DNA of 64,000 bases from Rickettsiales bacterium (GTDB lineage: Bacteria; Pseudomonadota; Alphaproteobacteria; Rickettsiales; CANDYO01), in the NCBI GenBank assembly GCA_965228885.1, contig OZ245841.1:1464348-1528347 (forward strand), in the 5' to 3' direction. Below are positions 24,171 to 49,047 of the stretch, in pieces; the first letter of the stretch is position 1; every line of letters starts with the position of its first letter. The translations under genes were made by a program, and so were the position numbers. The notes under the pieces are model-generated. The model did no database searches, was not told the DNA's origin, and was given only the letters and a program-made list of their open reading frames with translations.

Positions 24171-25670
<1,500 letters not shown>

Positions 25671-26523: not shown

Positions 26524-26535
26524 TTGGTATTTATT

Positions 26536-28143: not shown

Positions 28144-28144
28144 A

Positions 28145-28462
28145 ATGACACGCACATTTATTAGATTTAATGATTATTTAGTTGATAGATTAAAAGATCC
28201 AATTGAAGCCAAGGCGCATTTAGAACTTGCAATAAGTGAATATGAGAAAGATGGAGATACAGAAGCTTTTATGCTATTGTTAAGACTTATTGTTGAAGCT
28301 CAAGGCGGTGTTCCTCAACTATCTGAACGTGCTCATTTAAACAGACAAAATCTTTATAAAGTCCTGACTGGAAAAACTACTCCTAGGTTTGATACCATGA
28401 TTTCTATTATTAAAGGACTTGGTTACCATTTAGTACCTCAGAACATTGATACAGTTGCTTGA
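28145..28462 (+). CDS. addiction module antidote HTH protein (HI1420-type)
   Basis: EAQGGVPQLSERAHLNRQNLYKVL.G..PRFDT..IIKGLG; ATG directly after toxin stop. Confidence 0.88.
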   Translation: MTRTFIRFNDYLVDRLKDPIEAKAHLELAISEYEKDGDTEAFMLLLRLIVEAQGGVPQLSERAHLNRQNLYKVLTGKTTPRFDTMISIIKGLGYHLVPQNIDTVA

Positions 28463-28530
28463 AGAAAAAAGAATTTTTCTTTTATATTTCTGAAAAATAC
28501 ACAATTTGCCTAAGATGATATGAAGGTATT

Positions 28531-28680
28531 TGTCCCTCACTTAATCAAGTGACAGATCTATTTAGCAGAGATAAATCGTTGTTAACAAAACATTTAAAAA
28601 AGATTTTAAAGCAAAAGAATTCGATAGAAATTCAGTTGTGGCATTTTTTGCAACAACTGCTTCGGATGTGAAAACTGGGT
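28531..28680 (+). pseudogene. RhuM-family N-terminal fragment
   Basis: SLNQVTDLFSRDKSLLTKHLKKI / KEFDRNSVVAFFATTASD across a frameshift. Confidence 0.65.
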
Positions 28681-28843
28681 TGAGCGCTTTAATTTAAGTG
28701 CAATTATTTAGCTTGAACATTGGGTTAATTCAAGTTGATAATAAGATTGGTTATTTAAGTGGATTTTTTATTGTAAATATGAAGATTGACAATTAGTATG
28801 TTAGTTTATATAATTATAAACAAACATACTTTAAGGGTGAATA

Positions 28844-29611
28844 ATGAATAAGTTAGATACTTTACTTAACGATGCTCCTAAAAATACTGTAATACTAGAT
28901 AGTTGGTTAAAAAAACATTTAATATCCAATAGCTTAAAACAAAAATATTTGCAATATGGTTGGTTAAGATCAATAGGACGTGGAGCGAGTTATTTAAAAG
29001 ATAATCCACCTGATTGGCAAGGAGCAATAAGTGCAATGCAAGAAGCTGGAATAAATCTTCATGTAGGGGGGAAAACAGCATTACAACTTCAAGGTACAGG
29101 GCATTTCATAGCACCTAAACTTTCTAACCTTTATCTTTATGAGCATTCTAATCAAAGATTACCTTCTTGGTTTTTGCAGTATGATTGGCAAATACAAATA
29201 CATTATTGCAATACAGCTTTTATACCAGTGAACTTAGGAATACAAAACTTTAAAACAGATAATGGCACAATATTAAGAATATCTACAACAGAAAGAGCTA
29301 TATTAGAGTTACTTTATCTTGTTCCAAAAGCACAAGGAATAGAGGAAGCTTATTATATAATAGAAAATCTAAATTCTCTTCAGGCTGAATTATTACAAGA
29401 ATTGCTAGAATCTTGTCATTCGATAAAAGTTAGGCGATTATTTTTCTGCCTAAGTGAAAGAGCTGGTCATAGTTGGGTGAAATTACTCAATAAAGAGAAA
29501 ATAGATTTTGGCTCAGGAAAAAGACATATAGTAACTGGTGGATATCTTGATCCTGCTTATAATATAACATTACCAAAAAGTTGGAGAGAAAATGAAGAAC
29601 CAGTATTTTGA
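28844..29611 (+). CDS. type IV TA antitoxin, AbiEi family
   Basis: GWLRSIGRG, HVGGKTALQLQG, ERAILELL, KVRRLF, GSGKR. Confidence 0.88.
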   Translation: MNKLDTLLNDAPKNTVILDSWLKKHLISNSLKQKYLQYGWLRSIGRGASYLKDNPPDWQGAISAMQEAGINLHVGGKTALQLQGTGHFIAPKLSNLYLYEHSNQRLPSWFLQYDWQIQIHYCNTAFIPVNLGIQNFKTDNGTILRISTTERAILELLYLVPKAQGIEEAYYIIENLNSLQAELLQELLESCHSIKVRRLFFCLSERAGHSWVKLLNKEKIDFGSGKRHIVTGGYLDPAYNITLPKSWRENEEPVF

Positions 29612-30503
29612 TCAAGTAAAATTACTACTAAAAATATTACCATTTGCTCTGAAGAATCCTAATTTTGCCTTAAAAGGCGGGACGGCGATTAATTTATTTT
29701 TCCGTGATATGACAAGACTGTCAGTTGATATTGATCTCTGCTATTTAAAATTAGCTCCAAGAGAGGAAGCTTTAAAAGAAATAGAGTCAGGACTTGAAGC
29801 TATTGCTTCCAATATCATAAACCATTTTCCTGATATGTACGCAGAAACAAAATATACTAAAGATAATCAAGCTAAGAATATAGTAGTATCAGAAAATGAA
29901 GTTACGGTAAAAATAGAGATAAACTTAATTGTGAGAAGTGCTCTTTATCCTTGTGTTACTATAGACCTTTGTCCTGCAGCAAGCAAAAGTTTTAATAGCA
30001 AAATCTCAGCGCGCTGCCTTGATTTTGCAGATATTTATGGAGGCAAAATATGTGCAGCTTTGGATAGGCAGCATCCAAGAGATTGGTATGATTGTTGGAT
30101 TTTATTGGAGAATGAAGGGATAACAGAGAGAATTCGTAAAGCTTTCTTATTGTACCTACTCAGTGGAAAAAGGCCAATTTATGAAATGTTGGATCCATTG
30201 TCAGTAGATCAGAGATTGCTTTTTACCAACGAACTAGAAGGCATGAATGAATTTATACCTGATTATAAAACATTATCAGAAGTAAGAATAAGATTAGTTA
30301 AAGAATTGCAAAACACCATCACAGAAGATGAACGCTTATTTTTACTTTCTTTCAAAAAAGGCGCTCCTGAATGGAAAAGAAGTGGAATTGCTGGTTTAGA
30401 AAATTTTCCTGCAGTAAAATGGAAGTTGCTGAATGTACAAAAGATGAGCGCTGAAAAACAACGTGGCGCACTCAGTAAGCTAAAGCAGGTATTATTATTG
30501 TAA
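29592..30503 (+). CDS. type IV TA nucleotidyltransferase toxin, AbiEii family
   Basis: FALKGGTAINLF..RLSVDIDL, GKICAALDRQHPRD. Confidence 0.92.
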   Translation: MKNQYFDQVKLLLKILPFALKNPNFALKGGTAINLFFRDMTRLSVDIDLCYLKLAPREEALKEIESGLEAIASNIINHFPDMYAETKYTKDNQAKNIVVSENEVTVKIEINLIVRSALYPCVTIDLCPAASKSFNSKISARCLDFADIYGGKICAALDRQHPRDWYDCWILLENEGITERIRKAFLLYLLSGKRPIYEMLDPLSVDQRLLFTNELEGMNEFIPDYKTLSEVRIRLVKELQNTITEDERLFLLSFKKGAPEWKRSGIAGLENFPAVKWKLLNVQKMSAEKQRGALSKLKQVLLL

Positions 30504-30696
30504 TTTTAACTATAATTCAGGATCTATATCTCTTATTAAGAGCGAGATTAATGATAGCATTCTTTTACTATAACGGGAGAAATTCCAGAACTAAAAATTT
30601 TAATAATAACTTGATTCAAAAAATTTAATTAACCAGAGGTTAATAAGAATTAATTGACATAATGTTAAAACAATAAATACTGTATTTTATTATAAA

Positions 30697-33600
30697 GTGA
30701 ATCAAAAAATTTTTATGTTTAACGATTATCAATATAATATTGAGGATGTTAAGAATCATGTTTCTTATACTGATTTTGCTAGAGGTGTAGCATATCATAG
30801 TCAAAATAGAGTAAGCAATCTAAAAGCAGAAAAAAACAAATTAGCTGCTAATGTACAAGGAACTAGATTTAGGCCTTATGATGTTGAAGCACAAATTATT
30901 AATGAACAAGGAAAAAAATCTTTTATTGCCACTTGTTCATGTCCTGTGGCTTTTGGATGTAAGCATATTGTGGCCACTTTACTCTCAGGGATTGATCATT
31001 TCTCTAATGTAACTTCTATACAAAATATTTCTCAACCTCAGCCAATAAAATTAAATTATCATCTATCTAATTGGATTGAAAGCTTAAGTCCTAAAGCAAA
31101 AGATAATGATTCTGGTAAATTATTGATCTATATAATTGAAGGTTCAACTAAAGCTAATGTAGCATTCAAAGTTTCTTCACTAACCATTAGTGTACTTAAG
31201 AAGGGAATGTTTGGCGTATCTAAGCCTTATAGATTGGATCAGATTCACAATCCTGCTAAGTATGTACAAGAAGATGATTTAATGATCCTGCGGTTCATTT
31301 CATCCCTTATGCCATATTATTACGGAGGTTATAATACTCATGATATTCCAGTCACTCTAGATGCGAACATATTATTGCAATTACTTATAAAAACTGGCAG
31401 ATGTTACTTGCCGAATCCATATTTCCCAGAAAAGAACTTGTCTATTGGTGAATCACGTAAAGCTTTTATAAGCTGGAAAGCTGAATCTGATGGCTCTCAG
31501 AGCATAAAGATAGATGTAGATGGGGTGTCCTTTCCTATTATTATGCCAATGTATCCCCCGTACTATATTTGCCCTAACACAAGAACTATAGGAATGCTAC
31601 AAACAGATATGCCTGATAAGCAAGCCGTTGCCTTACTTAGAGCCCCTACTATTTCCCCTGAACAAGTGGCTCTTGTTAGTGAAAAACTATCATCAATATT
31701 AACAAATCCTGAGTTAATGCCCAAAGCTTTACCTATACGTAAACTTGAAATAAAACCTATCCCTCATCTGAAATTAACCAGTATTAAAATACAACCTAAG
31801 AAAAAAGGTTGGGGCTATAGTAATCAAGATCATGTGGAAATTGCGGCAGCAAATCTATATTTTGATTATCAAGGTAAAAAATTAAACCATAATGATAGCA
31901 CGCAAGAAATTACTAGTTATAAAAATGGTGAAGTTTTGAGCATACAAAGAGATAAGATTTTTGAACAAGGCTGCACAGAACTTCTAAAACATATGGGAAT
32001 GACCCTTAGGTTAGGAGATGTAGACGATTATTACAATACAAAACAAGAACATAAAAACATTATAACTATTGGAAATATCCAAGAAGAATTCCATAAAGAG
32101 GCAAATTTAAGTACATCTTGGACAAAATTCACTAAGGAAAGCATACCAAAACTTAAAGAAATGGAATGGCAAATTAAAATGGATAAAGTTTTTCCATATA
32201 ATATTGTTGAGGTTGATGATGAATGGTACGCTAACATTGATGAGGGCAGTGAAATCGACTGGTTCAGTGTAGAGCTCGGGGTTACTGTGGAAGGGCAGCA
32301 CTTTAACTTGGTGCCTATTTTACTAGATTTACTTAAAAATAATAAAGATTTTTCTGCTAAAGAATCTTTGTTTATTCCTATGAAAGATGGACGTAAATTG
32401 TCTATCCCATCAGATCGAGCCCAAATATTACTAAATACCTTAGAACATATATTTAGTTTCCAGAATCTTAGCAATAAAAATAATAAACTGAACTTACAAA
32501 AATTAGATGCCGCTTTGATAGCTGAGATAGAGACTGCTGCAGAATCTTTAAACATGCGTTGGTTCGGTGGAGATAAAATACGCAGCTTAGGAAAACGTTT
32601 AAAAGAATTTACTGAAATTTCTTCTTCAAATATCACAAAAAATTTTAAAGGTGAGTTACGACATTATCAACAAGATGGATTAAATTGGTTACAATTCCTG
32701 CGTGAATTTGAACTAGCTGGTATTTTGGCTGATGATATGGGACTTGGAAAAACAGTGCAAGTTCTTGCGCATATTGCAAAAGAAAAAGAAGAAGGTAGGT
32801 TAGAGAGTCCTATTTTAGTTGTTGCTCCGACTAGTCTAATGGTGAATTGGAGAATGGAAGCAGAACGATTTGTTCCAGATTTAAAGGTTATAACTTTGCA
32901 TGGTGCAAATAGAAAAAAGCATTTTAATGAAATAAAGCAATATGATTTAGTCCTTACTACATATCCTCTTTTAGCTCGTGATAAAGATAACTTACTGAAT
33001 TATAAATACCATACAGTTATTCTTGATGAAGCTCAGATTATTAAGAATACTCGCGCCAAAGTAACTCAGATAGCCAACCAGCTGAAATCACAGCATCGTT
33101 TATGCTTAACAGGAACACCGCTAGAAAATCATTTGGGAGAATTATGGTCGTTATTTAATTTTCTTCTTCCTGGTTATTTAGGTACTCAACAACAATTTGG
33201 TACTTTATTTCGCAATCCCATTGAAAAGAATGGAGATGCAACCAAGGGGCAAATTTTATTAAAAAGAATAAAACCTTTTATTCTTAGACGCACTAAACAA
33301 CAAGTGGTTACTGAGCTTCCTCCAAAAACTGAAATGATTCGAAAGATTGAATTAGAGGGTGTACAGCGTGATTTATATGAAACAATCCGAGTAAGCATGC
33401 ATAAAAAGATTCTAAAAGAAATAAAGGCTCGTGGAATGGATAAGAGTCATATAATTATATTAGACGCATTGTTGAAGTTGCGTCAGGTTTGCTGTGATCC
33501 AGCACTACTTAAGATGAATATAGCTAAGAATATTACCGAATCAGCAAAATGTAATGAATTAATGAACATGATTCCTGCAATGATCGAAGAAGGACGTAAA

Positions 33601-34053
33601 ATTTTATTGTTTTCTCAATTTACCAGCATGCTTGCATTAATTGAAAAACAATTAGATTTGCTTAAAATTCCATATGTGAAGCTAACTGGGCAAACTAAAG
33701 ATCGTGAAAGTCCTATACGTGATTTTCAAGAAGGAAAAGTACCATTATTTTTAATTAGCTTAAAAGCTGGTGGAACTGGACTTAATCTAACTAGTGCTGA
33801 TACTGTTATTCATTATGATCCATGGTGGAATCCTGCTGTTGAGAATCAAGCCACTGACCGAGCTTATAGAATTGGTCAAGATAAACCAGTTTTTGTCTAT
33901 AAATTAATTACTGTCGGTACAGTAGAAGAGAAAATTCTTGAGATGCAAGAGAAAAAACGTAAACTTGCCGATGCACTTTTCAACCCTTCAGAACAATCCA
34001 ACTCGAAACTAACCTCTGAAGATATTCAAACCTTATTTGAGCCGCTTGAATAA
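30697..34053 (+). CDS. SWIM Zn-finger SNF2-family helicase
   Basis: CSC..CKH SWIM; DDMGLGKT, DEAQ, TGTP.EN, GLNLT.AD, WNPA.E.QA.DRAYRIGQ. Confidence 0.93.
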   Translation: MNQKIFMFNDYQYNIEDVKNHVSYTDFARGVAYHSQNRVSNLKAEKNKLAANVQGTRFRPYDVEAQIINEQGKKSFIATCSCPVAFGCKHIVATLLSGIDHFSNVTSIQNISQPQPIKLNYHLSNWIESLSPKAKDNDSGKLLIYIIEGSTKANVAFKVSSLTISVLKKGMFGVSKPYRLDQIHNPAKYVQEDDLMILRFISSLMPYYYGGYNTHDIPVTLDANILLQLLIKTGRCYLPNPYFPEKNLSIGESRKAFISWKAESDGSQSIKIDVDGVSFPIIMPMYPPYYICPNTRTIGMLQTDMPDKQAVALLRAPTISPEQVALVSEKLSSILTNPELMPKALPIRKLEIKPIPHLKLTSIKIQPKKKGWGYSNQDHVEIAAANLYFDYQGKKLNHNDSTQEITSYKNGEVLSIQRDKIFEQGCTELLKHMGMTLRLGDVDDYYNTKQEHKNIITIGNIQEEFHKEANLSTSWTKFTKESIPKLKEMEWQIKMDKVFPYNIVEVDDEWYANIDEGSEIDWFSVELGVTVEGQHFNLVPILLDLLKNNKDFSAKESLFIPMKDGRKLSIPSDRAQILLNTLEHIFSFQNLSNKNNKLNLQKLDAALIAEIETAAESLNMRWFGGDKIRSLGKRLKEFTEISSSNITKNFKGELRHYQQDGLNWLQFLREFELAGILADDMGLGKTVQVLAHIAKEKEEGRLESPILVVAPTSLMVNWRMEAERFVPDLKVITLHGANRKKHFNEIKQYDLVLTTYPLLARDKDNLLNYKYHTVILDEAQIIKNTRAKVTQIANQLKSQHRLCLTGTPLENHLGELWSLFNFLLPGYLGTQQQFGTLFRNPIEKNGDATKGQILLKRIKPFILRRTKQQVVTELPPKTEMIRKIELEGVQRDLYETIRVSMHKKILKEIKARGMDKSHIIILDALLKLRQVCCDPALLKMNIAKNITESAKCNELMNMIPAMIEEGRKILLFSQFTSMLALIEKQLDLLKIPYVKLTGQTKDRESPIRDFQEGKVPLFLISLKAGGTGLNLTSADTVIHYDPWWNPAVENQATDRAYRIGQDKPVFVYKLITVGTVEEKILEMQEKKRKLADALFNPSEQSNSKLTSEDIQTLFEPLE

Positions 34054-34371: not shown

Positions 34372-35124
34372 CTAAAGAATAAAACTAGATTGATTAAATT
34401 TATTTGAAATTGCCTCAAATAATTGACTCTTACTATTAACCTCTAACTTAAGTTTTATATGACTTATATGCACTTCCACAGTTTTAGGAGCAATATTTAA
34501 AGTACGAGCTATCTCTTTTGCTGTTTTTCCCATTATTATTAAACGGGCACATTCAATTTCTCTATATGTAAGAAAGTTCTCTTTGAGGCTACATGAAATA
34601 TCAATTGATATTAAAGCTTTTTTGAAAAAAAATAAATCATTTCTCTCTATTAATAAATTACTACAAAAATCTATAACATTCTCAAGTTTAATTATATTAG
34701 TGAAACAAAAATCATGAAATTGTGGTATGTCGGCTTGTCCTATAAAAGCCCACATTTCTACATAATCTTTTTGTCTCTTGTATATATCAAAACCTTGGTC
34801 AAGTTTATGGCTGTGATTAAATTCTAGTAAAGAATCTAGCTTATTGTAACTCCAAGCACAATATACACTAGAAACAGATGATATAGCTTTTGTAAGTTTT
34901 TCTTGGAACAAGGTGTTATCAAAATAAGAAAAATTTAATAACCAGTTATTTAAGTATTGTTCATTTGTTGTTAGCATAGTTACATAATTATCTTTATATA
35001 TCCTGAAATAAAATAGATCTTTACCTAAAACTATATCTTTAATTGGTTTGCAAATTTCTAAAAATGAATAAGCTAAATTATTAGCATTATAATGCTGTAA
35101 GTATTGTTCATTATTATGTTTCAT
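34372..35124 (-). CDS. LuxR-type HTH regulator, array paralog 4
   Basis: LTYREIEC..GKTAKEIARTLNIAPKTVEVH. Confidence 0.85.
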   Translation of the reverse strand: MKHNNEQYLQHYNANNLAYSFLEICKPIKDIVLGKDLFYFRIYKDNYVTMLTTNEQYLNNWLLNFSYFDNTLFQEKLTKAISSVSSVYCAWSYNKLDSLLEFNHSHKLDQGFDIYKRQKDYVEMWAFIGQADIPQFHDFCFTNIIKLENVIDFCSNLLIERNDLFFFKKALISIDISCSLKENFLTYREIECARLIIMGKTAKEIARTLNIAPKTVEVHISHIKLKLEVNSKSQLFEAISNKFNQSSFIL

Positions 35125-35143
35125 ATATATTCTCCTACCATTC

Positions 35144-35875
35144 TTATAAAGAATCCTTATATAAATTAATTAAGTTATGCTTATAACTACATCCTGTTTT
35201 TTGTTTAATGTTATTTATATAAACCTCAACAGTTCTTGAAGATAAATTTAAATCTCTAGCTATTTCTTTTGTGGTCTTACCTAATATGATTAATCTTGTA
35301 CATTCTACTTCTCTATAAGTAAGAAAATTTTTGTTAAAAGAAGAAGCAAGGTTAAGTGGGATGAAAGCTTTTTTCTCTAAGAATAAACTTCCCTGTTGAG
35401 TTATAGGAGTACTACATAAATCAATTAAATCATTAAGTTTATTGATGTTGTTGATACAAAAGTCATGAAATAATGGTTGATTGGTTTTACCTATAAAACT
35501 CCATAATTCCACGTGATCCTTTTGTCTTCTATATATATCGAATCCTTGATCCATTGCATAAGAGTGATCAAATTCTAATAATGCATCCTGCTTTACATAT
35601 TCCCATACACAATATACATCGATAACAGAATTTATTGCTTGTTTTATTTTATCTCTAAATAATGTCAAATCATAATTGCTAAACATCATTAACCAATTAT
35701 TCATCCAAGAACTTGCTGTCGTTAAGATAATCATAGTATCATCTGGGTATATCCTCATATATGAAACCTCTTTAAAGTTTAGCTCTTTAAGAAAAGTAGA
35801 GCATATTTCAGAGAATAATCTAGATAAATCAGAAGAGTGATAAAATTGCAAAAATTGATCATTATTGAGTTTCAT
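35144..35875 (-). CDS. LuxR-type HTH regulator, array paralog 3
   Basis: LTYREVEC..GKTTKEIARDLNLSSRTVE; ATG 35875 after AGGAGA. Confidence 0.85.
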   Translation of the reverse strand: MKLNNDQFLQFYHSSDLSRLFSEICSTFLKELNFKEVSYMRIYPDDTMIILTTASSWMNNWLMMFSNYDLTLFRDKIKQAINSVIDVYCVWEYVKQDALLEFDHSYAMDQGFDIYRRQKDHVELWSFIGKTNQPLFHDFCINNINKLNDLIDLCSTPITQQGSLFLEKKAFIPLNLASSFNKNFLTYREVECTRLIILGKTTKEIARDLNLSSRTVEVYINNIKQKTGCSYKHNLINLYKDSL

Positions 35876-35894
35876 ATGCTTTTCTCCTATAAAA

Positions 35895-36626
35895 TCAATA
35901 AACACCCTGATAAAATTTGATTAAGTCATGCTTATAATGACATCCTGTTTTTTGTTTTATATTATTTATATAAACTTCCACCGTTTTTGGCGATATATTT
36001 AAACCTCTAGCTATTTCTTTTGTAGTTTTGCCTAGTATGAGTAGTCTTGCGCATTCCGTTTCTCTTACCGTAAGCAAAACTTTACTAAAATTTGAACTAA
36101 GGTCTATAGGAATATTTGCCCTTTTATAAAAAAACAAATCCTTATTATGATTTAATTGCTTAGTACATAACTCTATTATTTCTTTAATTTTGCATAAATT
36201 ATTAATACAAAAATCATGAAATAAAGGTATTTCAGCGCTACCAGAAAAAGCCCACATTTCTACAAAGTCTTTTTTTCTTGTATATATATCAAAGCCTTGA
36301 TCTATTCTATATCGATGATTGAACTCTAATAATGGATCGTGTTTGTTGTAACTCCAAGCTCCATAAATATTATTAACTGAAGGGATAGATTTTTTTATTT
36401 TATCCTGAAAAAAAGTGTCGTTAAAATCATTAAAATAACTTAACCAGTTATTTATCCATTCTTTGTTTGTAGTAATGCTATAGATAGAGCCATCTTTGTA
36501 TACTCTACTATAATATATATCCTTTTTGAACATCATATTCTTAAGAGGTTTAACAATCTCTAAAAATGAATTGGATAAATTATTAGAATTATAATATTGT
36601 AAATATTCTTCATTTTTCTTTTCCAT
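35895..36626 (-). CDS. LuxR-type HTH regulator, array paralog 2
   Basis: LTVRETEC..GKTTKEIARGLNISPKTVE. Confidence 0.85.
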   Translation of the reverse strand: MEKKNEEYLQYYNSNNLSNSFLEIVKPLKNMMFKKDIYYSRVYKDGSIYSITTNKEWINNWLSYFNDFNDTFFQDKIKKSIPSVNNIYGAWSYNKHDPLLEFNHRYRIDQGFDIYTRKKDFVEMWAFSGSAEIPLFHDFCINNLCKIKEIIELCTKQLNHNKDLFFYKRANIPIDLSSNFSKVLLTVRETECARLLILGKTTKEIARGLNISPKTVEVYINNIKQKTGCHYKHDLIKFYQGVY

Positions 36627-36660
36627 AATATACCCCATAAAATAAAGGTTCTTATTTTTG

Positions 36661-37467
36661 TTATTTATATATCAAAAACATTTTTTTATTCTCATGATAA
36701 ATTTTTGCTAAATCGGATTTAGAGTAATGACCTATTTTACTCCTAATATTATTTATGTGTGTTTCTACAGTCTTTTCTGAAATTGATAACTCTTTCGCTA
36801 TACATTTATAAGTCAACCCTTTAGCTAGACCGGAAATGCACTTAGATTCTTTATTAGTAAATTTTTTTACTTTATTCTCTTTCATAAAATATAAATCTTG
36901 TTCTAGTGAGGGGGCATTTAATTTAAGGTTGTTTTCTTGACATGTTAAGTCTTTTATTTCTTTAAAATGCCCTAGTACATCTTCGTCTAGAGGAGTTAAT
37001 ATTCGTTGGGCTTTACTCCTAATATATAAAATAAACTCTTCTACAAACTTGGTATTATTTATAATAAAATTTGGTATTTGAGTATCTGAAATATCTCCTG
37101 CAAATGCAAAAGATTCTACAAAGTCATTTTCTCTATAATATATGGTTATACCATTCCAGATATTAAAAGAATGAAGTGCAGAAATTATAAAATCATTTGA
37201 TACTTGTGGCCATAAAAAATAAGTAAATTTTTTATGTATAGATTTTTGTATTGCTGTACTAAATACTGTTCCAAGATCTTTAATATTCACAAAATAGAAA
37301 TCTTGCCATTTGTGATGGTTACATAAGGCTAAATATTGACCATTTATAAAAAATTTTCTATAACCAAAAATTTTTATACCGCATTGGGAACATAAAGGCT
37401 CACAAAGCTTGTACAACTTTTCCGCATTTTCTTTATTATATTGAATAGAAAGTAGTTTATCACTCAT
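36661..37467 (-). CDS. LuxR-type HTH regulator, array paralog 1
   Basis: FTNKESKC..GLTYKCIAKELSISEKTVETH; GAGG RBS before ATG 37467. Confidence 0.85.
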   Translation of the reverse strand: MSDKLLSIQYNKENAEKLYKLCEPLCSQCGIKIFGYRKFFINGQYLALCNHHKWQDFYFVNIKDLGTVFSTAIQKSIHKKFTYFLWPQVSNDFIISALHSFNIWNGITIYYRENDFVESFAFAGDISDTQIPNFIINNTKFVEEFILYIRSKAQRILTPLDEDVLGHFKEIKDLTCQENNLKLNAPSLEQDLYFMKENKVKKFTNKESKCISGLAKGLTYKCIAKELSISEKTVETHINNIRSKIGHYSKSDLAKIYHENKKMFLIYK

Positions 37468-37729
37468 AGCAAACCTCTTTTTCATTAATTCTAATTAATC
37501 TTATTATAAAAATCTATAAGGGAAAAATACCTAGAAAAAACTTTTATTTTGAATCTTAAGTTTATCTCCGTATTTTTTACTTAGAGGTATTCACTCTAAG
37601 TATTCTTTCAGAATTATTTCTTCTCAAAATATATATTAAAAATATTTACATAAGGTAGTTAAACTCACACAAAGAAAAAACTGAAGTCTACCTTATTAAA
37701 TAACAACATATAATATATAGGAGGAAAAT

Positions 37730-38005
37730 ATGTGTTTAGATATTGTTTATAAATTAGTTTCAAGTCCAGTTGGAGGAACTTTAGATTATATAAATCAAGG
37801 TACTCTCAGAGCGGATAGTATTAATTACATTAGAAATAAGTCTCCAATAGAACATGCCGCTTGCGGAGCACTTGCTGGATATTTAGCTTACAAAGCTTAC
37901 CAAGATTACGTATTGAATAATGATTATTCTAACTTTCATCATTTAAGAGGATCAGATCATAATAATACTATTGTTGGAGAGGTAAATGACAGTATTAGTG
38001 ATTAG
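37730..38005 (+). CDS. small hypothetical protein divergent from the LuxR array
   Basis: AGGAGG RBS, 91 aa, followed by a strong hairpin. Confidence 0.7.
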   Translation: MCLDIVYKLVSSPVGGTLDYINQGTLRADSINYIRNKSPIEHAACGALAGYLAYKAYQDYVLNNDYSNFHHLRGSDHNNTIVGEVNDSISD

Positions 38006-38022
38006 GGTCTTAGTTCTTCATT

Positions 38023-38064
38023 ATAGCTACTCTATCTTTATACCCAAAGAAGTAGAGTAGCTAT
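38023..38064. terminator. hairpin between convergent genes
   Basis: ATAGCTACTCTA...TAGAGTAGCTAT. Confidence 0.65.
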
Positions 38065-38715
38065 TATTTATTTCTTATATGTGTAATCGATTAAAAGTGA
38101 TAAAATTAAATTTCTATTTCATCTTTAAAAAATTTTATTAATTCACTTTTAAAGTGAGTATTAGATTTAAGCTTGATATTATTTAAATTTTGCTCTACTG
38201 TTCTTGGTTTTACATTTATCTCAATAGCAATTTCTTTCATAGATAATCCATTAGAAAATTTTGATAAAATCTCAAATTCTCTTTTTGTAAGGTAAACTTT
38301 ATTATTCTTTCTTGAATAATATTTCTTCACTGGAAATAATATATTAGAATCGTCCAAATTTCCTTGAATGATATTGCTACTAGTATAAAATTCGTATTTT
38401 CTAATTTCTAAAGTAGGTAAAGTCATAAAAACTTGTTTTTCAGCTACTAATAATTCTTCGTGAAACTGCTCTTTGAAATAAGAAATAAATTCTTTTAGAA
38501 TTTTTAGGTTATTAGAGTAAAATTCTAAAATTTTATCGTTATTTCTTGAAGAAGAAAACCCATATACTTCGAAATATACGTCATATCTTGCATATAGCGT
38601 AATTCCATTCCAAATATCGTGCTCATACATTAATTTAAACATATCGTTAGATTTAATGGATGACCATGGCATACTTTTTAAATCCATATTAGCTTCTGCA
38701 CTTAAAACATAACTA

Positions 38716-39670
38716 TAGTGTTTCCTCTTTATAATTAGACCTGAAAAGCATAATCTACAGCGTCATTGAAATTTTCAAATTTGTGTTTATATTTTCTAAA
38801 TTTTCTCTTTAATACAGCCCATTGATTTTCAATTGGATTTAAGTCTGGAGAATATGCTGGTTGATATAGTAGACTGCAACCAACTGATTCTATAAGCTCT
38901 TTTGTTCTGGGTGATTTATGGAAGGCAGCGTTATCCATAATAACAACTTGACCTTCTTTAAGTTCTGGAAGTAGATATCTTTCAAGCCATATATTGAATC
39001 TTTGTGAATCAGTATAACCTGTAAAAACATAAGGAGCGATCATCTCTTTTTTCTTAGATAACCAAGCTGCTATAATTGAAATTCTTCCATATTTTCTCCC
39101 ATGAATCTCGGATATTACTTGCTCTCCACGTGGTGATCTGGCATAATCACGTTGGAGGAATTCATCAATTCCAGACTCATCAAGCCAAACTAACTTAGCA
39201 GGATCGATTTGCTCTATCTTGGATAGAAATTCTTGTCTTCTTTCTTCATTTCGTTCCGCGTACAATGTTGTTTTTTTTACGAGTGATACCAAACTTTTTA
39301 CAGCGTTTATGAATCGACTGAGGCCAACAATCGAATTGTTCAGAGAGTTCTTCTAATGTTGCGTCTGGAGTTTTATTAATAGCGGCTACTAGAAGATCCG
39401 AATCTATCTTACGAACCTTATATGCCTTGCGAGGAGAATCAGAAATTTTTCCTGTTAACTTAATATTCTTTATCCATGAAGCAATACTACCCTTACTAAT
39501 AGAAAATACTTTGCAGGCCTTATCCCAAGACATACCTTTAGAAATATTTTCTAGAACACATTTTCTAAAATCAGTGCTGTAACTCATAAAAACTCCTGTT
39601 TTAATAATTATATAAACAAGTATTATTATGGCAGAGCAGAAATTAGTTTATTTATAAAGAGGAAATACTA
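38716..39670 (-). mobile_element. IS630-family element
   Basis: IRs TAGTGTTTCCTCTTTATAA / TTATAAAGAGGAAATACTA; TA duplication. Confidence 0.92.
38735..39587 (-). CDS. IS630 transposase (two ORFs, probable -1 frameshift at A8)
   Basis: HTH ORF 39246-39587; DDE ORF with DESG, MDNAAFH, YSPDLNPIE; A8 run at 39271-39278. Confidence 0.9.
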
Positions 39671-40092
39671 TATATAAATCTAAATTATTATATAGATTTT
39701 TGATAAAAGCTACGTTAAGCCAATTTTCATTACTACAAAAGTGGATCTTTTTTCCTTGGTTTGTAATTTTCATGTAAGAAAAAGTTTTGATACCATAAGC
39801 TTCATCTAGAGGTTTACAAAATTGCCTTAATTTTCTAGATTGAAGTAAACTATACTCTTTGAACTCTAAAATTTTATTGGTATTTAGTAACATAAGTATT
39901 ACCTTTTTATACTAAAATGTCCCTTTATATATAATTAATGAAGTAAAATTTATTTATTTCTTTGTAGTACCTTCCTTTATAATTATGTAGTAGTTTTAAA
40001 TTTTTGCCATAATATACCAAAAACTTACTTTATTTTTAGTTATATATTAATTTTCAAGCAAGATAAAGCTTAATATCTTAATATGAAAGATT

Positions 40093-40898
40093 GGGAGTGT
40101 TCATAAATAGATAGAAAGTGATAAATCTTGATTATAAAACATCAAAACTGTCAATCTTAACATCTCTGCGCATTTGCTAAATCTCTTGGTTTTCCTATTA
40201 AGTCTAGCAAGCATATCTCTAAGGCTAGAATTAAAACTCTCTACCAGACAAGTTTCTGATTTACTAGCAATGTGATGATTAGCTATCTTATAATATCTGT
40301 ACGCTTCATATTTATCAGTGCACATATAATTTATTTCATATTTATTCTCTAATTCCATAGCAATTTCCAAGTAACTACTTATTGTCCCATCGCCTATTTT
40401 AAATGCAACATTTTTGAATCCGTCCCTATCAACAGCAGTCCATACTCGTGTTTTGTTTTCTTTTTTTTGATATAAGTATAAAGCTCATCCATTTCGAGTA
40501 TCTCTATAGTTCCTTTTTCATGATCTCTACTTTTAACCATTTCATCAACTATTTTGCCAGCTTTTTTAATCCAAGAAAACACAGTAGAAAGAGGAATACT
40601 CAATATTGCAGATATTCTTCTAAAACCGCAATTATTCAAGTACATCTTAATAACCATATTTCTTGTATCATTATTATATTTTTGGGCTCCTCTTCTATCG
40701 CCAGAAATAAAATTTTTATAGCACTTGCTACAACGATAGCGTTGCATAGACCTCACTAAACCATTCTTTACAATACTTCCATTTCCACAAAATTTACATT
40801 TAATTTGTTCCATAATATTAGTTTTTTAAGTTATACACTAGTAAAACTAAATTATAGAGCATTATTCTTAACTTGTCTATCTATTTATAAACACTCCC
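40093..40898 (-). mobile_element. IS1-family element
   Basis: IR GGGAGTGTTYATAAATAGATAG; 8-bp target duplication GAAAGATT. Confidence 0.9.
40101..40813 (-). CDS. IS1-family transposase (InsA/InsB, probable -1 frameshift)
   Basis: CxxC..QRYRCxxC Zn ribbon, HTH, EMDE, A8 at 40461-40468, TD.Y, VESFNSSLR. Confidence 0.88.
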
Positions 40899-42282: not shown

Positions 42283-42372
42283 ATGATATAAATTTAGGAA
42301 AAGTAAATGCTCTTAACTTTTATTCGTTTGTATATAACGTATAGAACCTAAGTTGTCATAATTTTTAAGGTA

Positions 42373-45170
42373 CTACCACATCTGCATTTTGAATTCTTTC
42401 TTTTGCATTTGATTTGCTTTAACATGATCACTCATTTTTACCTGATTTTGTAGTTCAGTGGCTGATGTTTGATTTCCATCGTTTTTTATTAGAGTTTTTT
42501 CTAGCTCCTGTTTGTTTTGTGTGAGGATTTTTATCTCATCCTGATGCCTTGATAAAGTTACCAGCCAAGATTTTTGTTCATTTAATAATTTATGATTTTC
42601 AATTGCAGCGATTGTATTAGCGTAAGTTTTGCCCTGTGAGGAATGCACTGTGATGCAATAGCCATAATCAGTATGTTTTAAAGCAGATATAGGAACAATT
42701 CTGGTGAGATTATTTTCAAATTGAAGTGATACTTTATCATTTCTTATTTGTTTGATAATAGCAGTTTCTGAATTTATAAGTCCAAACTCCTTATTATTCT
42801 GAGTAAAAATTATTTTTAGATTCTCTTGTAGTTTAAGTTGTTGCTCAGTAAATACGGTGAATTTATTGCTATAATCTATCGATAGTTTTAAATAGAATAG
42901 AACTTCTTTGCCATTTTCTTTTGCAAGAATAAGGCTATTAGTGAAACTATTGCATTTTTTAACTCGCAAAAATTCATTCTTTTCAATCTTATTTTTATAA
43001 GATTTGTTGAATTTTAAAATATCTCCTTCCTTATAATTCTGTACAAATCTCATCTCAGCTTTGCTCAAATCTTTTAGCCTTAATATATGATGTGATTTTC
43101 CTTTACCAGATAAGGTTCCTTCTTCTTGCAGCCCAGTTCTTATCTGATTATTAATAGCATCACGTAAACTTCTAGTAGGCGAGATTAGTAATGTGTTATT
43201 TCGTTTTTCCTTATCGACCCGAAGATAAGCATTTACAGCATCATTACTTAAATTCTTACTTTCAGCGATGTTATTATCATGAATTGCAAAAGTTTCTTTT
43301 ATTTTGCCTTGACTTGCAGCAATAATTGCTTGTTTGTGAGCTTGCTCTTTTTGCCTTACGATTTGTTTTAATTCAATCGGTTTAACTATTGATAAAATCT
43401 GCTTAAATGGCTTACCAGCTTCTACAGCAGAGAGTTGCTTTGGATCTCCCACTAAAACCATTCTGAACTTTAGCATGTCTTGTAGAGAAGTTAGTTTATG
43501 CATTACATTAGTTGAGATCAAGGAAGCTTCATCAACAAATATAATGGTATTTTTATATTCTTTGCTTAAACCGCATAGCGATTCTTTTGTGCCTCTACCT
43601 TCTAAATAACCCTGATATTTTGCTAAAAAGCTATGAATAGTATTAGACTCTATTTTAGCTGAACTTCCTAATGTTTTACTAGCAGAAGCAGTAGGTGCCA
43701 TTCCTTCAAATTCTTCATGTTTTATAAATAATCTGATGATTTTATTTAGCTTATGATCTGCAATGTCCCTAACGGAATTAAGTACTGTGGATTTACCTAC
43801 ACCTGGTAAGCCAACAACCGAAATAATATTATCTTTAGAAGAAAGAATATGCTTTGTAACTTTTTCTTGCTGATTATTCATTTGAAAATCGGGATTTTGT
43901 TTTAAAGACCTATTGATAAATTTCTTATAATGAGCCTTGAAATATTTTTCTTCTACTAGAGGTTTTGCTTTACCTATAGAATTTTGAGCATGTTTTAGAA
44001 TTTGTTTTTCTTTTGTTAGTAGGACTTTGCTAGTATATTGATTATTATACTCAATTAATGAACCTTGTTGTACCTGGTTTTTAAATTCCTGATCTATTTC
44101 TCTAATAGTATGATTACCTATAGATAATTTTAAAGCTTTCCTGGATAAATCTTCTTTAGTAAACACTGATTTATACTGTGTTACATCCTCTATGCATAAT
44201 TTTACTAAATCTTTTAAATCAAGTTTTTCATTGATTGAAGGGTCTGATGATTGTTCACACCCTTTACTCAGTTGATTCTCTTGAGTGATTTCTTGAATAA
44301 CCTTCTTCTCCAGTTTATGCCAAGCTTTAGTGATATCTTCTTGCAAACTTATGCTTTTAGATTTTCTAGAGTTAATAACTATTTTATCTCGGCCTTCCTT
44401 AGTAGTTACATTATAAAATTTACATAATTCTTCAATTTCCTTTCTCCTAGTAGAAAATGCATCAATTATTTTTGGGTGAACATGACTCAATTCAAACGAA
44501 CTACTACCATCTGATAAAATTGTTGGAGTAATGTCATAGCCTAATTTCTTAGTTTCAATTGCTAATTCATTACGGAATATCTGGCCAAAAAATTTGTTGT
44601 TCTTTAGGACTTCCTCGAAAGCAATACTTCTATATTTACCATCATCGCATTTAGCAGCGTTAGCTAATAAACAATGAATATGCGCTTGTGGCTCAACATT
44701 ACGATTAGTGCTATGCAAAAAGCAAGCAAATGTGAGTTTATTGACTGGCTCTTTTATTACGCTATTGTGACCTTTTCTAAATTTTACATAATTATTTTCT
44801 TCTATGTATTTTAGAGTATTATTCACTGCAATTTTAAAGCTGATTCTAGATTTTGTTTATTCTCATTATTAGCATAAATCAGCATCTCTATTGAAAAGCT
44901 CTTTGGAGCTGAGAAAGTTAAATCTACCCCTGTACAATGCTCTTCTTTACCATTAATTTTTCTAGCAAGCTTCTGACCATTAGGCATTTTCCCTTCAAGT
45001 AAGTCTATAAAGCTTTGATTATCTTTAGCCTTAAATTTACCAGAAAGATTAAAATCATCTTTAGCCCCTTCGCCAAACCAATAGCCTTGGGCCTCGCTTC
45101 CATAATAATCTCCATGAGAATAATAATTCGCTGCAGCGCTTGAACTTTTAAACACACGAGTTGATAACAT
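42373..45170 (-). pseudogene. MOBF (TrwC/TraI-like) relaxase-helicase, frameshifted
   Basis: NYYSHGDYY, DLTFSAPKS, H.TNR..PQAHIH, FSTRR, GLPGVGKS, VDEAS, GYCITVHSSQG; 1 bp missing near 44831-44835. Confidence 0.9.
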
Positions 45171-45203
45171 GATTTACCCTTTATACTATTTGAATTATTT
45201 TAT

Positions 45204-45548
45204 TTAAGATTTTCTTTTAATAATTTTATATCCATATGGCTCTCTTGCTATACGACTATACTCTAGAGCGTTTTTATCAATTTCCTCTATCTCATCTTGT
45301 TCATAATATTGTGTTAAAGCTTTTCTTTGGAAGTAAACCAATTTCAATAATAAATTGATGCTCAATATATTATGCCTCTCAATTGGAGTACTAGTGTACC
45401 GCTCATTTTCATCAAGCAAGTCAGTATTTTCGTTGAATAACTTCTTTCTCATATATTCACTTAGACTAAATCCAAATTGCTTAGCTATTTCCTGCAAAGC
45501 TTGTTTTTCTGACTTTGTCATTGATAATAAAAAATTTGTCTTTTTCAT
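45204..45548 (-). CDS. ribbon-helix-helix relaxosome accessory protein (MobC/TrwA-like)
   Basis: FLLSMTKSEKQALQEIAKQFGFSLSEYMR; directly upstream of relaxase. Confidence 0.7.
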   Translation of the reverse strand: MKKTNFLLSMTKSEKQALQEIAKQFGFSLSEYMRKKLFNENTDLLDENERYTSTPIERHNILSINLLLKLVYFQRKALTQYYEQDEIEEIDKNALEYSRIAREPYGYKIIKRKS

Positions 45549-45612
45549 AAATATTTCCTTATATTTCTTAGGGTGGGCACAGTATGCCTATCCTTTATAG
45601 TTAATCTAAAAA

Positions 45613-45924
45613 GTTACACCTGGTAACACCGGGGCTGGTTATCATTTTTATCCTGGTGTAACCAACAAATGCTGATAAAATAAGGCTTTAGGATAGGTGG
45701 TAACACAAGTTACACCGGTAACACCGAAAATTTAATGACTTTCAGACTTTTTGTTTTTTTATGCCTTATTATTTAGCAAAATTTTTGAAAAATTCTAAAA
45801 CCTATATTTTTGTGGTGTTACCGGTGTTACTTGTGTAACTTTATTCTCAATCCCTTGATATACTTAACTTCTTAAGTTACACCTTGACTTGATTTGAATA
45901 AAATCCAGGTGTTACCGGTGTAAC
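45613..45924. repeat. dyad-symmetric array of 12 GTWACACM octamers (putative replication origin)
   Basis: Units at 45613, 45623, 45655, 45700, 45709, 45718, 45814, 45823, 45832, 45876, 45908, 45917. Confidence 0.85.
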
Positions 45925-45937
45925 TTTTTTAGGTCAA

Positions 45938-47703
45938 TTAAATTAATATTTTATCAGCAATATGGTAAACCCTAATTTTACCAACATCAGGTAAATGCTT
46001 AACTTCCATACTCTTACCTTGACTATCTGGAATTAAAAAACCCTTTTGAATCAGATACTGACTAACTTGCCTATAATTTAATCCCTTACAAACTTCGTTT
46101 TTGTAAACTTCTGGTAAAATATAGTAATGAAATACTCCTTCGATTCTCTGTTTATAACCAGCTCGATCAATGGGCTTAATTAAAGAGGAAATATCACTAA
46201 TATTAATAAATCTACTTTCACCATATTTTTCCAAAAAAGATTTTACTTGGGCTATAGCTTTTTTTTGCTCTAAATCTTTAGTATTTCCTCGTTCAATGAG
46301 CCAAGATTTGAAACACTTAGATATTGCTTCTTGTGCGTCTCCTTGATTTAAGGAAGATAAAATTCCAAACTTAATTGCGAGCTCTCCAGCTGCTGCTATG
46401 AGTCCAAAGCGATTTGCAACTCTAGTTACTTGACCACTTGAACTTTCTGGTAAGTATTTATTCTTAAATTCTTGGCTAATTTGTTTAACTTGAGTAATTA
46501 CTGAATCAATATCAGCAGTGAAACCTTCAAGATATTTAGTAATTGCAGTACCATAATATTTACTACATGCATCTTTTAAATGTCTGGATAATAATTCTCC
46601 ATTTTTAAAACCATGTAGATCTTCAAATATACCAAATCCACTATTACAATTAGCAGGAATACTTACAAATCTTACTTCCATACCAGCAAAAGATCTTTTG
46701 TTGGTTTCTTGAACTTTAGTCGCGATATCAATTTCACCAGTGGAAAAAATAAGGGTGCCCCAATTGTGGACCTCCTTCATTGTAATATTGCTCTTAAGTC
46801 TTCTTTTTCCCTGATTATTAGCAAGCATATAAACCATGTCACTAACTGCCTTACTATCTGCCTGTGCAAGTTCATCCAAAGGTAATAAACAATCATTATG
46901 ATTTTGTGCAACCACTTCTAAAGCATTACAAGTAACTCTCCATTGCTTGATAAAGCTACTTGATCCCCAAACGCTAGCTGCTACTTGTAAAGCTGTAGTT
47001 TTACCAAGTGAGCTACTACCAACTAAATGAATTGCTCCACTTTCTTCGTTTACGAGTTTCAGTAACGGAGCGGCAAAACTACAAGATAAAGCCAAAATTA
47101 ACCTTGAATTATTATTAGCATATTTAGCTATATTGTTTTGCCAATCTTCTAAACTACCAGAAGATTCAAATTGCCTTTCTAGCTCAGTACTAGATTTTAA
47201 TACTAGTTCATTATTTATTGGATATATTGTACCAGGTAAAACGAAATGATTTCTATACCAACCAACGCTTCCAACTAAAGTAAATTTTCTAGATGGGAAT
47301 TCATTGAAATATAGCTAAGTAGTTTTTCTTTAGCTTTCTTGCTATAATTTATTTCGATTCCTTCTGATAAAAATTTATTGAGAATCTCTTTACCATCTCC
47401 GGCAAGTAATCCTGCTGGCATATACCATTTATGCTTCTTTCTGGTTTTTAAAGTTTCCCAAGACAGTAAAAGCCCATAATTATTATCATGTTCATCGCAA
47501 AAATATGCTTCAATATCAAAAGGAGATGAAAGCCACAGCTTCTCTCTATTTCTGGTTTTCTCGTCTACCTTATTATCAATATCTGCTATTAATTGCTTAA
47601 AGTTGTGAGTAGTAGGTTTGATGTTTTTTGCATCAATATTATTCTTTTCTGGAAGTAGATAACAAAGTGCATTTTTGTTTTTAATGTAATTTTCTAAACT
47701 CAC
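45938..47703 (-). pseudogene. DUF927-domain helicase/replication protein, frameshifted
   Basis: VGWYRNHFVLP, GSLEDW, SCSFAAPLL, GSSSLGKT, LDE, STGE, RVANRFGL; frame break near 47290-47310. Confidence 0.85.
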
Positions 47704-47705
47704 TA

Positions 47706-47927
47706 TTACCCCCTTATTTGAGAAGTTGAGTTTACGGTATTGGCTTGAAGATAATCTTCAATATCTCGCAAATCATAGCGCACGCATTTACCTATTTTAA
47801 TATAGAGAATACCCCCACCTTTAATACGATCAGCTTCTAGCTTCCGTCTTGTGCAGTTAAGTAATTTAGCTGCTTGGGCTGTATCTAAAAGAATATAATT
47901 AAAATTGTTATTAGTTTTTTCTAGCAT
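47706..47927 (-). CDS. AlpA/excisionase-like HTH protein
   Basis: LLDTAQAAKLL..R..GGG..YIKIGKCVRY...DIEDYL. Confidence 0.85.
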   Translation of the reverse strand: MLEKTNNNFNYILLDTAQAAKLLNCTRRKLEADRIKGGGILYIKIGKCVRYDLRDIEDYLQANTVNSTSQIRG

Positions 47928-48113
47928 TTATAAGTCCTCGTCACTTTAAGTTAATAACAGACGTAAATGTAGAGTGTGATGATTCCAATAAAAACGTTCA
48001 AAGCATTAGATCCAAAAGGGTAAGACCCTTTAGAAATTAAATAAAAACTGGTATCAATGTGTTGCAAAATAAGGAATTAGGTGGGTATGATGCTTCAGAA
48101 CAAAAAAAAGTGA

Positions 48114-48812
48114 TTATTTAGAGTTATTTTTATTCAATTTTTTTAAGCCACCTTTTTGAGATTCTGGTTCTCTCACGAAAGTAGCTAACATTTTTGCTTT
48201 AGTCATTGATGAATAAATTTCACCAGGCATTTCTTTCAATTTATTATAAAACCAGTCTATGAGTATTTTTGTTTGTGGCTGATTGGTATCCGTTATGTTA
48301 AATTCTGTAACTGCTAAATCAAGAAGTTTCATATATGGACTCAAGTAATTAGCTCTGTGATGAATGACAGGAGCAGATTTTCTTTTTAAGGATGGATAAG
48401 GAAAAACTTCATATAGTTCATTAGTCTTGAGAAAAATATTTATGTATAATCTTTTGTCATACAATGAATTTACAGGTTGTAATTCACTTTCGTCCCAATT
48501 AATTTTATTATACTGCCACTGAATTCCTGATATTTCATAACGAAGTGGATGTTCATAAGCAGTTTCAGGTGGATCACCTTCTCTTTGAGCAATTGCAACT
48601 ATTTTTTCTTCAAATAAAGCTAAAAATAAAAGTCTCTTAGCATAATCTATTTCTGTTATATCTGAATTCTGGATACTTCTTTTTTCTCCGCGAATAACCA
48701 TTTAGTATACTTCAGGTATAGGCTTAAATCCAAAAGCTATCCATTCAACTGCTTGACGTAGGTCTGCTGACCTCATAATAATTGGAGATTCTGGAAGTTC
48801 AAATTCTGACAT
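48114..48812 (-). pseudogene. island hypothetical protein with in-frame stop
   Basis: ATG 48812 MSEF..LRQAVEWIAFG..EVY* is in frame with the ORF starting at 48701. Confidence 0.55.
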
Positions 48813-48971
48813 TGCTAATAGATAATGTTTATCGCACTTGAATATATAAATAATGCTATTAAGAGCAATTTTCAAGTTTTAGTCTAATTTGAAATTAATC
48901 CTGGTGGTCACTTATTGGTCACTTTTGATTTTTAGCGTTTTTAAAGAGTTTTCTGAATCCAGCAGATTTGT

Positions 48972-49047
48972 TGGTGTGCCCAGTAGGATTCGAACCTACG
49001 ACCCTTTGATTAAAAGTCAAATGCTCTACCAACTGAGCTATGGGCAC
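48972..49047 (-). tRNA. tRNA-Lys(TTT), integration site
   Basis: GTGCCCATAGCTCAG..GACTTTTAATC..TTCGAATCC..GGGCACACCA. Confidence 0.97.

Follow-up and report, generated by a model that had tools for sequence, protein, structure and literature searches.

A mirror-symmetric iteron array beside a DUF927 helicase gene

We analyzed a 64,000-nucleotide stretch of the genome of a Rickettsiales bacterium (GenBank assembly GCA_965228885.1, contig OZ245841.1, positions 1,464,348 to 1,528,347; the whole stretch is referred to here as the window), in which 55-bp perfect repeats bound a 22.7-kb island at a tRNA-Lys gene. Going from the tRNA along the minus strand, one meets a 195-aa open reading frame (ORF), an HTH_17 gene, a DUF927 helicase gene that is split in two, an array of short repeats (iterons), a NikA-like gene, and a TrwC/AAA_30 relaxase gene that is likewise split in two. 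The array, at 45613 to 45924, begins 13 nt past the stop codon of the helicase gene at one edge and stops 64 nt before the start codon of the nikA-like gene at the other. Since it adjoins both the helicase gene and nikA, two readings compete from position alone, namely, a replication origin and a transfer origin. The evidence presented below makes it very likely that the array is the vegetative replication origin of this integrative mobilizable island and that it is read by the adjacent DUF927 helicase.

The helicase gene lies on the minus strand and consists of an N-terminal piece of 142 aa (47275 to 47703; Pfam E value, 3.5e-15) and a C-terminal piece of 385 aa that holds the Walker A ATPase core (45938 to 47095; Pfam E value, 6.3e-38). 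A tblastn comparison with the intact 583-aa orthologue of a same-genus genome, G004 (L016, 2186 to 3937), places a single frame change near 47296. Directly upstream of the helicase gene is the HTH_17 gene (AlpA/excisionase-like; 47706 to 47927, minus strand), and this order is repeated in G004, in a second same-genus genome, G002, and in another relative, G053. On the other side of the array, also on the minus strand, are the gene for the NikA-like ribbon-helix-helix relaxosome accessory protein (45204 to 45548; Pfam NikA-like E value, 1.7e-06, with 28.5 bits versus a cut-off of 27) and the gene for the TrwC-type (MOBF) relaxase-helicase (42373 to 45170; Pfam TrwC and AAA_30). The two relaxase pieces (44823 to 45170 and 42373 to 44826) are separated by one frame change near 44829 to 44835, as judged by tblastn with the intact G004 orthologue. 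A hairpin with a 10-bp stem is present at 45570 to 45594, between the array and the nikA-like start codon; by eye, neither G004 nor G002 shows one at the corresponding position.

The array as a whole, to which no strand is assigned, contains 12 octamers fitting GTWACACM that are mirror symmetric about position 45769. In the nikA-side half, an outer pair of plus-strand octamers (45613 to 45630, with starts at 45613 and 45623 and a 10-nt spacing) is followed by a single reversed octamer on the minus strand (45655 to 45662) and by an inner plus-strand triple that points at the core with a 9-nt period (45700 to 45725, with starts at 45700, 45709, and 45718). The core itself, again without a strand, comprises 88 bp that are 81% A+T (45726 to 45813); it is the candidate DNA-unwinding region, and its position is conserved in G004 and G002. 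Beyond it come the mirror-image triple on the minus strand (45814 to 45839, with starts at 45814, 45823, and 45832), a single reversed octamer on the plus strand (45876 to 45883), and the outer minus-strand pair on the helicase side (45908 to 45924, with starts at 45908 and 45917). The layout therefore reads 2-1-3, AT-rich core, 3-1-2. The centers of the six mirrored octamer pairs fall at 45768.5, 45769.0, 45769.0, 45769.5, 45769.5, and 45769.5, and the spacers agree in length between the two halves (24/24 and 37/36 nt). Their sequences are not conserved, with identities after reverse complementing of 8/24, 14/36, and 17/44. An earlier reading of this DNA, made from the letters only, had described the same 12 octamers, the same mirror geometry, and the same difference between spacer sequences, and all of these were recovered at identical coordinates and on identical strands.

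Neither the number of octamers nor their arrangement is expected by chance. GTWACACM occurs 14 times in the window, with the array accounting for 12 of these matches, versus 3.05 expected occurrences (standard deviation, 1.62); the maximum in 100 shuffles was 8, and none reached 14. Mirror symmetry did not arise in any of 100,000 random placements of 12 octamers within 312 bp. The A+T content of the core compares with 68% for the window, and 2.5% of 88-bp segments reach 81%. In the complete 1.55-Mb genome, the doublet pattern GTWACACNNGTWACAC was found five times, always within the array, and its backwards control was found 0 times. Because this doublet occurs nowhere else in the genome, the array is not a dispersed repeat or a miniature inverted-repeat transposable element, the finding that the earlier reading had named as one that would speak against an origin. 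Rfam matches over the window were confined to a 16S rRNA and three tRNAs, with none in the array, and a blastn search (distant mode) of the array and its flanks against a plasmid database returned no match.

The two 37-nt spacers each contain, in addition, one copy of a non-iteron motif, AAGGSWTT. The first copy, AAGGCTTT, was picked out by eye at 45682 to 45689 on the plus strand, and its partner, AAGGGATT, lies at 45849 to 45856 on the minus strand, such that the pair centers on 45769. Similar words are present in the matching spacers of G004 (locus L016) and G002 (locus L017). A host factor or a second island protein may bind this motif.

Arrays beside DUF927 helicase genes in other genomes

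In the two same-genus genomes, G004 (helicase 75% identical) and G002 (79 to 89% identical), a collinear 2-1-3, AT core, 3-1-2 arrangement lies between the helicase stop codon and the nikA start codon. The iteron word is WACGCAA in G004, GGTACGCR in G002, and GTWACACC in the window, and the inner block on one side of the G002 array has two clear copies, not three. If an array co-evolves with a single reading protein, its word should change in concert at every recognizable site and the positions should stay the same, as is the case here. Across these three loci, the N-terminal ribbon-helix-helix region of NikA is nearly invariant and the C-terminal part of the helicase differs. The sequence-only reading had proposed that it is geometry, not spacer sequence, that is conserved; the preservation of the layout in two relatives that use a different iteron word agrees with this proposal. 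The GTWACAC word of the window recurs in G053, whose helicase is 37% identical, and in G009 (53% identical; partial match).

Arrays also accompany the helicase gene outside the genus. A first set of 61 genomes was searched, DUF927 homologues were present in 8 of them (G000 included), and the DNA around 7 matches was taken. A heptamer cluster lay directly after the DUF927 gene in 6 of these 7 loci, each with its own word; none was found in L022 (G014), where the helicase match is partial and 31% identical. Four of the six array-bearing loci had neither NikA nor TrwC within 5.5 kb. In one of these four, three small-terminase genes come next and the locus resembles a phage satellite; one is a small island with integrase, AlpA, and helicase genes; and the neighboring genes of the remaining two (G039 and G009) belong to other or no known families.

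A wider scan took one genome per species and comprised 80 further loci (L023 to L102) with helicases 37 to 79% identical. To be scored as array bearing, a locus had to have at least five exact copies of some 7-mer within a 400-bp stretch, both strands counted. Immediately past the helicase gene, this threshold was reached by 50 of the 74 scorable loci (38 had at least 6 copies and 26 had at least 8), in contrast with 4/70, 1/60, 1/60, and 3/58 loci at control anchors placed at -3000, -4500, +2000, and +3500, respectively. The presence of arrays after homologous DUF927 genes, which the earlier reading had suggested as a check, is thus far more frequent there (50/74) than at the controls (1 to 4 of 58 to 70). 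The four loci (of 70) with a 7-mer cluster approximately 3 kb upstream of the helicase gene end may have a second origin-like array across the replication gene. A metagenome scan for closer relatives yielded five loci, and the two close ones (76% and 86% identical) end at a contig end before the array would be reached.

The arrays also share an ordering of their sites. With one mismatch allowed, the twelve-site orientation string >>><>><<><<< is exact in 9 of 34 arrays, and several others match it apart from one or two additional sites. The string reads as a block of three, one reversed site, and a block of two, followed by the mirror image, and these blocks recur from Rickettsiales to Chlamydiae and Deltaproteobacteria. 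These three blocks also make up the window array, with unchanged polarity (the GGTAAC end faces the center), but there the order is 2-1-3 / 3-1-2 and the center is much longer; by eye, the block order in G004 and G002 resembles that of the window.

Sequence and model comparisons place the helicase in the self-loading SaPIbov1 Rep / Cch (DUF927) family. When the family profile was compared with all PDB sequences, it matched 8tch with an E value of 5e-29 and 5dgk with an E value of 6.7e-18. An AlphaFold2 (AF2) model of the 385-aa piece, built from 51 sequences, had a mean predicted local distance difference test score (pLDDT) of 90.8 and a predicted template modeling score (pTM) of 0.84. In Foldseek searches with this model, the best match was Cch from the staphylococcal cassette chromosome (SCC) element SCCmec (5dgk; E value, 3.4e-16; TMq, 0.69), followed by SaPIbov1 Rep (8tch; E value, 8.3e-13; TMq, 0.60), with MCM/CMG subunits and PriRep1 below them; the alignments to 5dgk and 8tch cover the whole chain of the piece. 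The model ends in a confidently predicted beta-beta-alpha-alpha-beta-beta domain of the winged-helix type (residues about 313 to 380), which is the predicted iteron reader. No primase gene or primase domain was seen beside the 583-aa type helicase of this genus.

Replication origin, transfer origin, or both

In the transfer reading, which starts from position, the array would be the oriT (origin of transfer) of the nikA-like/trwC operon or the place where its relaxosome assembles, with the octamers bound by the NikA-like protein or the relaxase. The sequence-only reading had not commented on this relaxase operon just beyond the array. An oriT usually lies upstream of the accessory and relaxase genes, as in R64 and R388, and the array ends just upstream of the nikA-like start codon. 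Moreover, the order array, nikA, trwC is kept in G004 and G002, and the window, G004, and G002 have no other intergenic space upstream of nikA in which an oriT could lie. The distribution of arrays speaks otherwise. NikA/TrwC homologues were found in only 2 of 84 DUF927 loci, those of G004 and G002, and arrays are present in 48 of the 72 scorable DUF927 loci other than these two. Within 3.2 kb downstream of arrays in 48 loci, none of 127 ORFs had a relaxase or NikA Pfam domain; the genes found there include those for portal, capsid, small-terminase, integrase, and toxin-antitoxin proteins.

The reciprocal test gave a matching answer. Twelve other loci from the same order, with a relaxase 34 to 57% identical, were collected, nine of which have a nikA-like gene and none of these nine a DUF927 gene. 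Eight of the nine have no array upstream of nikA. The ninth, L132 (G124:C24), encodes, at 2286 to 5074, a Toprim primase, an AAA_25 helicase with a C-terminal helix-turn-helix, TGAAACA iterons inside a 142-aa ORF, and nikA, and it holds a different replicon at the same position before the nikA-trwC module. Given that arrays track DUF927 loci and rarely relaxase loci in both directions of the test, we assign the array, on these comparative grounds, to the helicase and not to the relaxase. Two further points count against an oriT: the N-terminal region of NikA stays almost invariant though the iterons differ, and twelve dyad-symmetric sites around an AT core are unlike the single nick site beside an inverted repeat. 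A MOBF oriT would travel with its relaxase and accessory gene, which the array does not do, and we consider a pure transfer origin very improbable.

Iterons inside a small ORF after the helicase gene were observed at several distant loci (L018, 8248 to 8718; L020, 9735 to 10109; and L132, 4242 to 4670). The products share the motif EER.AI..(Y/F/H)D.G and belong to no Pfam family, and the DNA of these ORFs may serve as coding sequence and origin together.

A reading that fares somewhat better than a transfer origin, while still unlikely, is a dual role, in which the origin of the helicase would double as the promoter/operator or nick site of nikA-trwC, such that initiator binding would couple replication with mobilization. 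Only 64 nt separate the last iteron from the nikA start codon in the window, and roughly 45 nt (by eye) do so in G002; because so little DNA lies between them, the mob promoter would have to be in the array or at its edge. The symmetric, non-iteron AAGGSWTT motif in both 37-nt spacers also counts in favor of this reading, and in L132 an unrelated helicase gene is followed in turn by iterons, nikA, and the relaxase gene, so the sequence of replicon and then mob genes recurs. A promoter and terminator scan of 45100 to 46100 was uninformative on this point, since its 5 promoter-like sites compare with 4.8 expected by chance. No asymmetric nick-like word is conserved among the three same-genus arrays, as judged by eye, and two adjacent modules may simply reflect modular assembly. 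Similarly doubtful is a fuller version of the scheme, in which the 2 x 6 grammar would template a double hexamer with one winged-helix domain per iteron, the genus would have permuted the blocks and opened the 88-bp core, and the array would also control or transfer the mob operon, thereby tying theta replication of the excised island to its conjugative mobilization.

The least probable reading is that the array is a relic or that it binds proteins without a role in replication, for example in partition, as a centromere-like site, or as an operator of transcription. In its favor, the frameshifts in helicase and relaxase here and in G002 indicate that the elements are decaying, and partition proteins and regulators of the ribbon-helix-helix type also use arrays of short repeats that face both ways. 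Against it, GTWACACM still describes every one of the 12 octamers, the intact G004 element preserves the layout, the island showed no partition genes, and proven origin-binding initiators belong to this helicase family. An integrase arm site or phage attachment site (attP) was also considered for the array and dropped, as the island ends are approximately 3 kb and approximately 19 kb away and the array follows the helicase gene in other genomes.

Several findings weigh against a helicase-read replication origin. Among the 74 homologous loci, 24 have fewer than 5 exact 7-mer copies, and in the three same-genus loci, little of the intergenic space before nikA is left outside the array. A correlation between the helicase and its iterons favors the origin reading but is limited in extent. 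For a wing segment of the C-terminal domain (window residues 355 to 372, IPDSQGKSMEVKHLPDVG), identity tracks iteron similarity across 34 loci when core identity is controlled (partial Mantel r = 0.31, P = 0.0004), but for the whole C-terminal domain, the same test gives r = 0.13 (P = 0.08), and its reverse control gives r = 0.12 (P = 0.11). Since the wing segment was picked after the alignment had been viewed and the 34 loci are mutually related, this correlation is a hint, not proof. The helicase gene in the window is, in addition, broken by its frameshift, and the sequencing depth gives no sign of activity: the island contig has a depth of 72.6 versus 82.5 for its flank, with neither excess depth nor an excision joint. 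A 55-nt unitig at the repeat has a depth of 156, close to the combined depth of the contigs flanking it (72.6 + 82.5). These depth and joint data say little, as they consist of contigs only, probably from the source sample, with a second run that is patchy and no listed piece that spans the helicase frameshift site.

Given the frameshift in the helicase gene, this origin is probably silent in cis unless a helicase is supplied in trans. A public assembly covers 42300 to 48994 in one contig and shows no differences from the window. In G002 (L017, G002:C10, 1329 to 7025), helicase and relaxase are both split as well, at places other than those in the window, and in G004 both are intact; since the split sites differ, the islands appear to be decaying independently in the window genome and in G002. 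The fit of all 12 iterons to GTWACACM despite the broken helicase implies either that the break is recent or that a helicase acts in trans.

Taken together, the arrays after homologous DUF927 genes, the confinement of the doublet motif to the array, and the preserved geometry support the view of the sequence-only reading that this is an origin or helicase-loading site.

Known replication modules and the island

On sequence comparison, the closest known system is the Rep-ori module of the Staphylococcus aureus pathogenicity islands (SaPIs) and other phage-inducible chromosomal islands (PICIs), including Gram-negative PICIs such as EcCICFT073. SaPI and PICI origins are reported to sit just after the rep gene (PMC9371898; PMC7581432; PMC6092414). 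As described for SaPIs in PMC9371898, 6 to 12 iterons lie immediately downstream of rep, half of them (at least two) on each side of a central AT-rich region and in opposite directions; the C-terminal winged helix of Rep binds these penta- or hexanucleotide iterons, and binding and melting are ATP independent. The window array likewise lies immediately 3' of a helicase gene of the SaPIbov1 Rep (8tch) family, with 13 nt between stop codon and iteron, and its opposed sets of six iterons per side flank an A+T-rich core of 88 bp. SaPIs and PICIs similarly have up to twelve short iterons in two opposed sets around an A+T-rich center (PMC9371898; PMC6092414), and in both systems the iteron word differs between close relatives. 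Judged on these characters, the array has every sequence-level feature of a SaPI Rep-ori module. The systems differ in that the window iterons are 8 bp, versus 5 to 6 bp in SaPIs (PMC9371898), the host belongs to the Rickettsiales, the helicase is frameshifted, no primase was seen beside it, and the island has a MOBF relaxase module in place of phage packaging or interference genes.

Two further systems share the DUF927 family. Cch, which has a DUF927 domain, is a relative of SaPIbov1 Rep (PMC7581432), and Cch of SCCmec is both the best fold match of the window helicase and a member of the same Pfam family. According to the parts of PMC7581432 used here, no origin had previously been identified in SCC elements, and the one described there, with three 5-nt direct repeats, is that of the unrelated Cch2. 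The HTH_17 + DUF927 gene pair, in turn, is conserved in the MGIVchHai6-type islands that are mobilized by IncC plasmids, where its role has been called puzzling and it is dispensable for mobilization (PMC7449626). These islands thus resemble the window island in carrying the pair within a mobilizable element, but the portions of PMC7449626 consulted describe no origin for them. A description of a DUF927 origin in Rickettsiales or beside a relaxase module was not found in the literature, in a search that was limited and is no proof of absence.

The sequence-only reading had compared the array with the origin of phage P4, for which SaPI/PICI modules now provide the closer parallel. P4 resembles the window element in having an octamer iteron read by the C-terminal domain of a primase-helicase, integration into a tRNA gene, and an AlpA-type regulator. 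The P4 alpha protein is an SF3 helicase of the D5_N/Primase_Cterm type, in contrast with the DUF927/MCM-like helicase of the window, which is of the SaPIbov1 Rep/Cch type. P4 also pairs its ori with crr, a second, distant iteron cluster, and no crr-like cluster and no alpha-type SF3 primase-helicase accompany the array in this genome.

Building on the observed anatomy of the array, its observed link to the helicase family in many genomes, and the fact that the protein is homologous to SaPIbov1 Rep and Cch, we propose the following mechanism by analogy. By homology with SaPI Rep, the winged-helix-like C-terminal domain of the helicase would bind the 8-bp iterons. Each half of the origin has six iterons, consisting of a pair and a triple that point at the center and one reversed iteron, and could dock one hexamer. 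The number of sites suggests one site per hexamer subunit and two hexamers per origin. With the two halves facing each other across the 88-bp core, the core would melt, and two helicase rings would load for bidirectional replication after excision of the island. Binding, melting, the occupancy of one iteron per subunit, and replication are all steps that we infer from the analogy.

The island that such an origin would serve ends, on the left, in a 55-bp direct repeat corresponding to the 3' part of tRNA-Lys (26275 to 26329, plus strand) and, on the right, in an identical copy (48965 to 49019, plus strand) inside the tRNA-Lys gene itself (48972 to 49047, minus strand). Its tyrosine integrase gene (26524 to 27690, plus strand; Pfam Phage_integrase E value, 7.5e-30, with Arm-DNA-bind_3) is at the end far from the tRNA. 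Beyond the relaxase gene come insertion sequence (IS) fragments, five LuxR-type genes, an SNF2 helicase gene, AbiEi/AbiEii genes, and a toxin-antitoxin gene. Pfam searches of the island ORFs found no terminase or capsid genes and no phage-type packaging or interference genes. Because these are lacking, along with the capsid-remodeling functions typical of PICIs, and a MOBF relaxase is present, the island is best classified from its gene content as a mobilizable island with a SaPI-type replicon rather than as a PICI or phage satellite. TerS does occur in some distant DUF927 relatives, L019 and L102 among them.

Other features of the region were noted in passing. The five LuxR-family genes (GerE domain; 193 to 274 aa) are consecutive on the minus strand at 34372 to 38687 and are followed by IS630 and IS1 transposase fragments (38735 to 40813). 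Defense-like cargo lies beside the integrase on the plus strand (28070 to 34053) and comprises an HI1420-type antitoxin, the AbiEi/AbiEii pair, and a 1118-aa SNF2-family helicase with a SWIM zinc finger. Just outside the left repeat of the island is a complete 16S rRNA gene (24172 to 25670, minus strand). As no 23S or 5S gene was detected by Rfam in any part of the window, the rRNA operon is split.

The array is very likely an origin of a known kind, and what it adds is modest: an origin joined to a relaxase module on an island of the Rickettsiales, a permuted block order, and a three-genome series. The HTH_17 + DUF927 pair nevertheless gains a testable proposed function, namely, that of a SaPI-type replicon that would copy the excised island before transfer, and the data suggest looking for iterons just after the DUF927 gene of MGIVchHai6-type islands. 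For annotation more generally, 6 to 14 copies of a 7- to 9-mer could be sought within 400 bp after any DUF927 gene. The three same-genus arrays, with one geometry and three words, form a natural specificity-swap series with which DNA reading by the C-terminal domain could be mapped. This origin design would not be confined to phage satellites or to cocci, as it is found in a relaxase-bearing island of an obligate-intracellular-type lineage, the Rickettsiales, and its fixed twelve-site grammar recurs across phyla.

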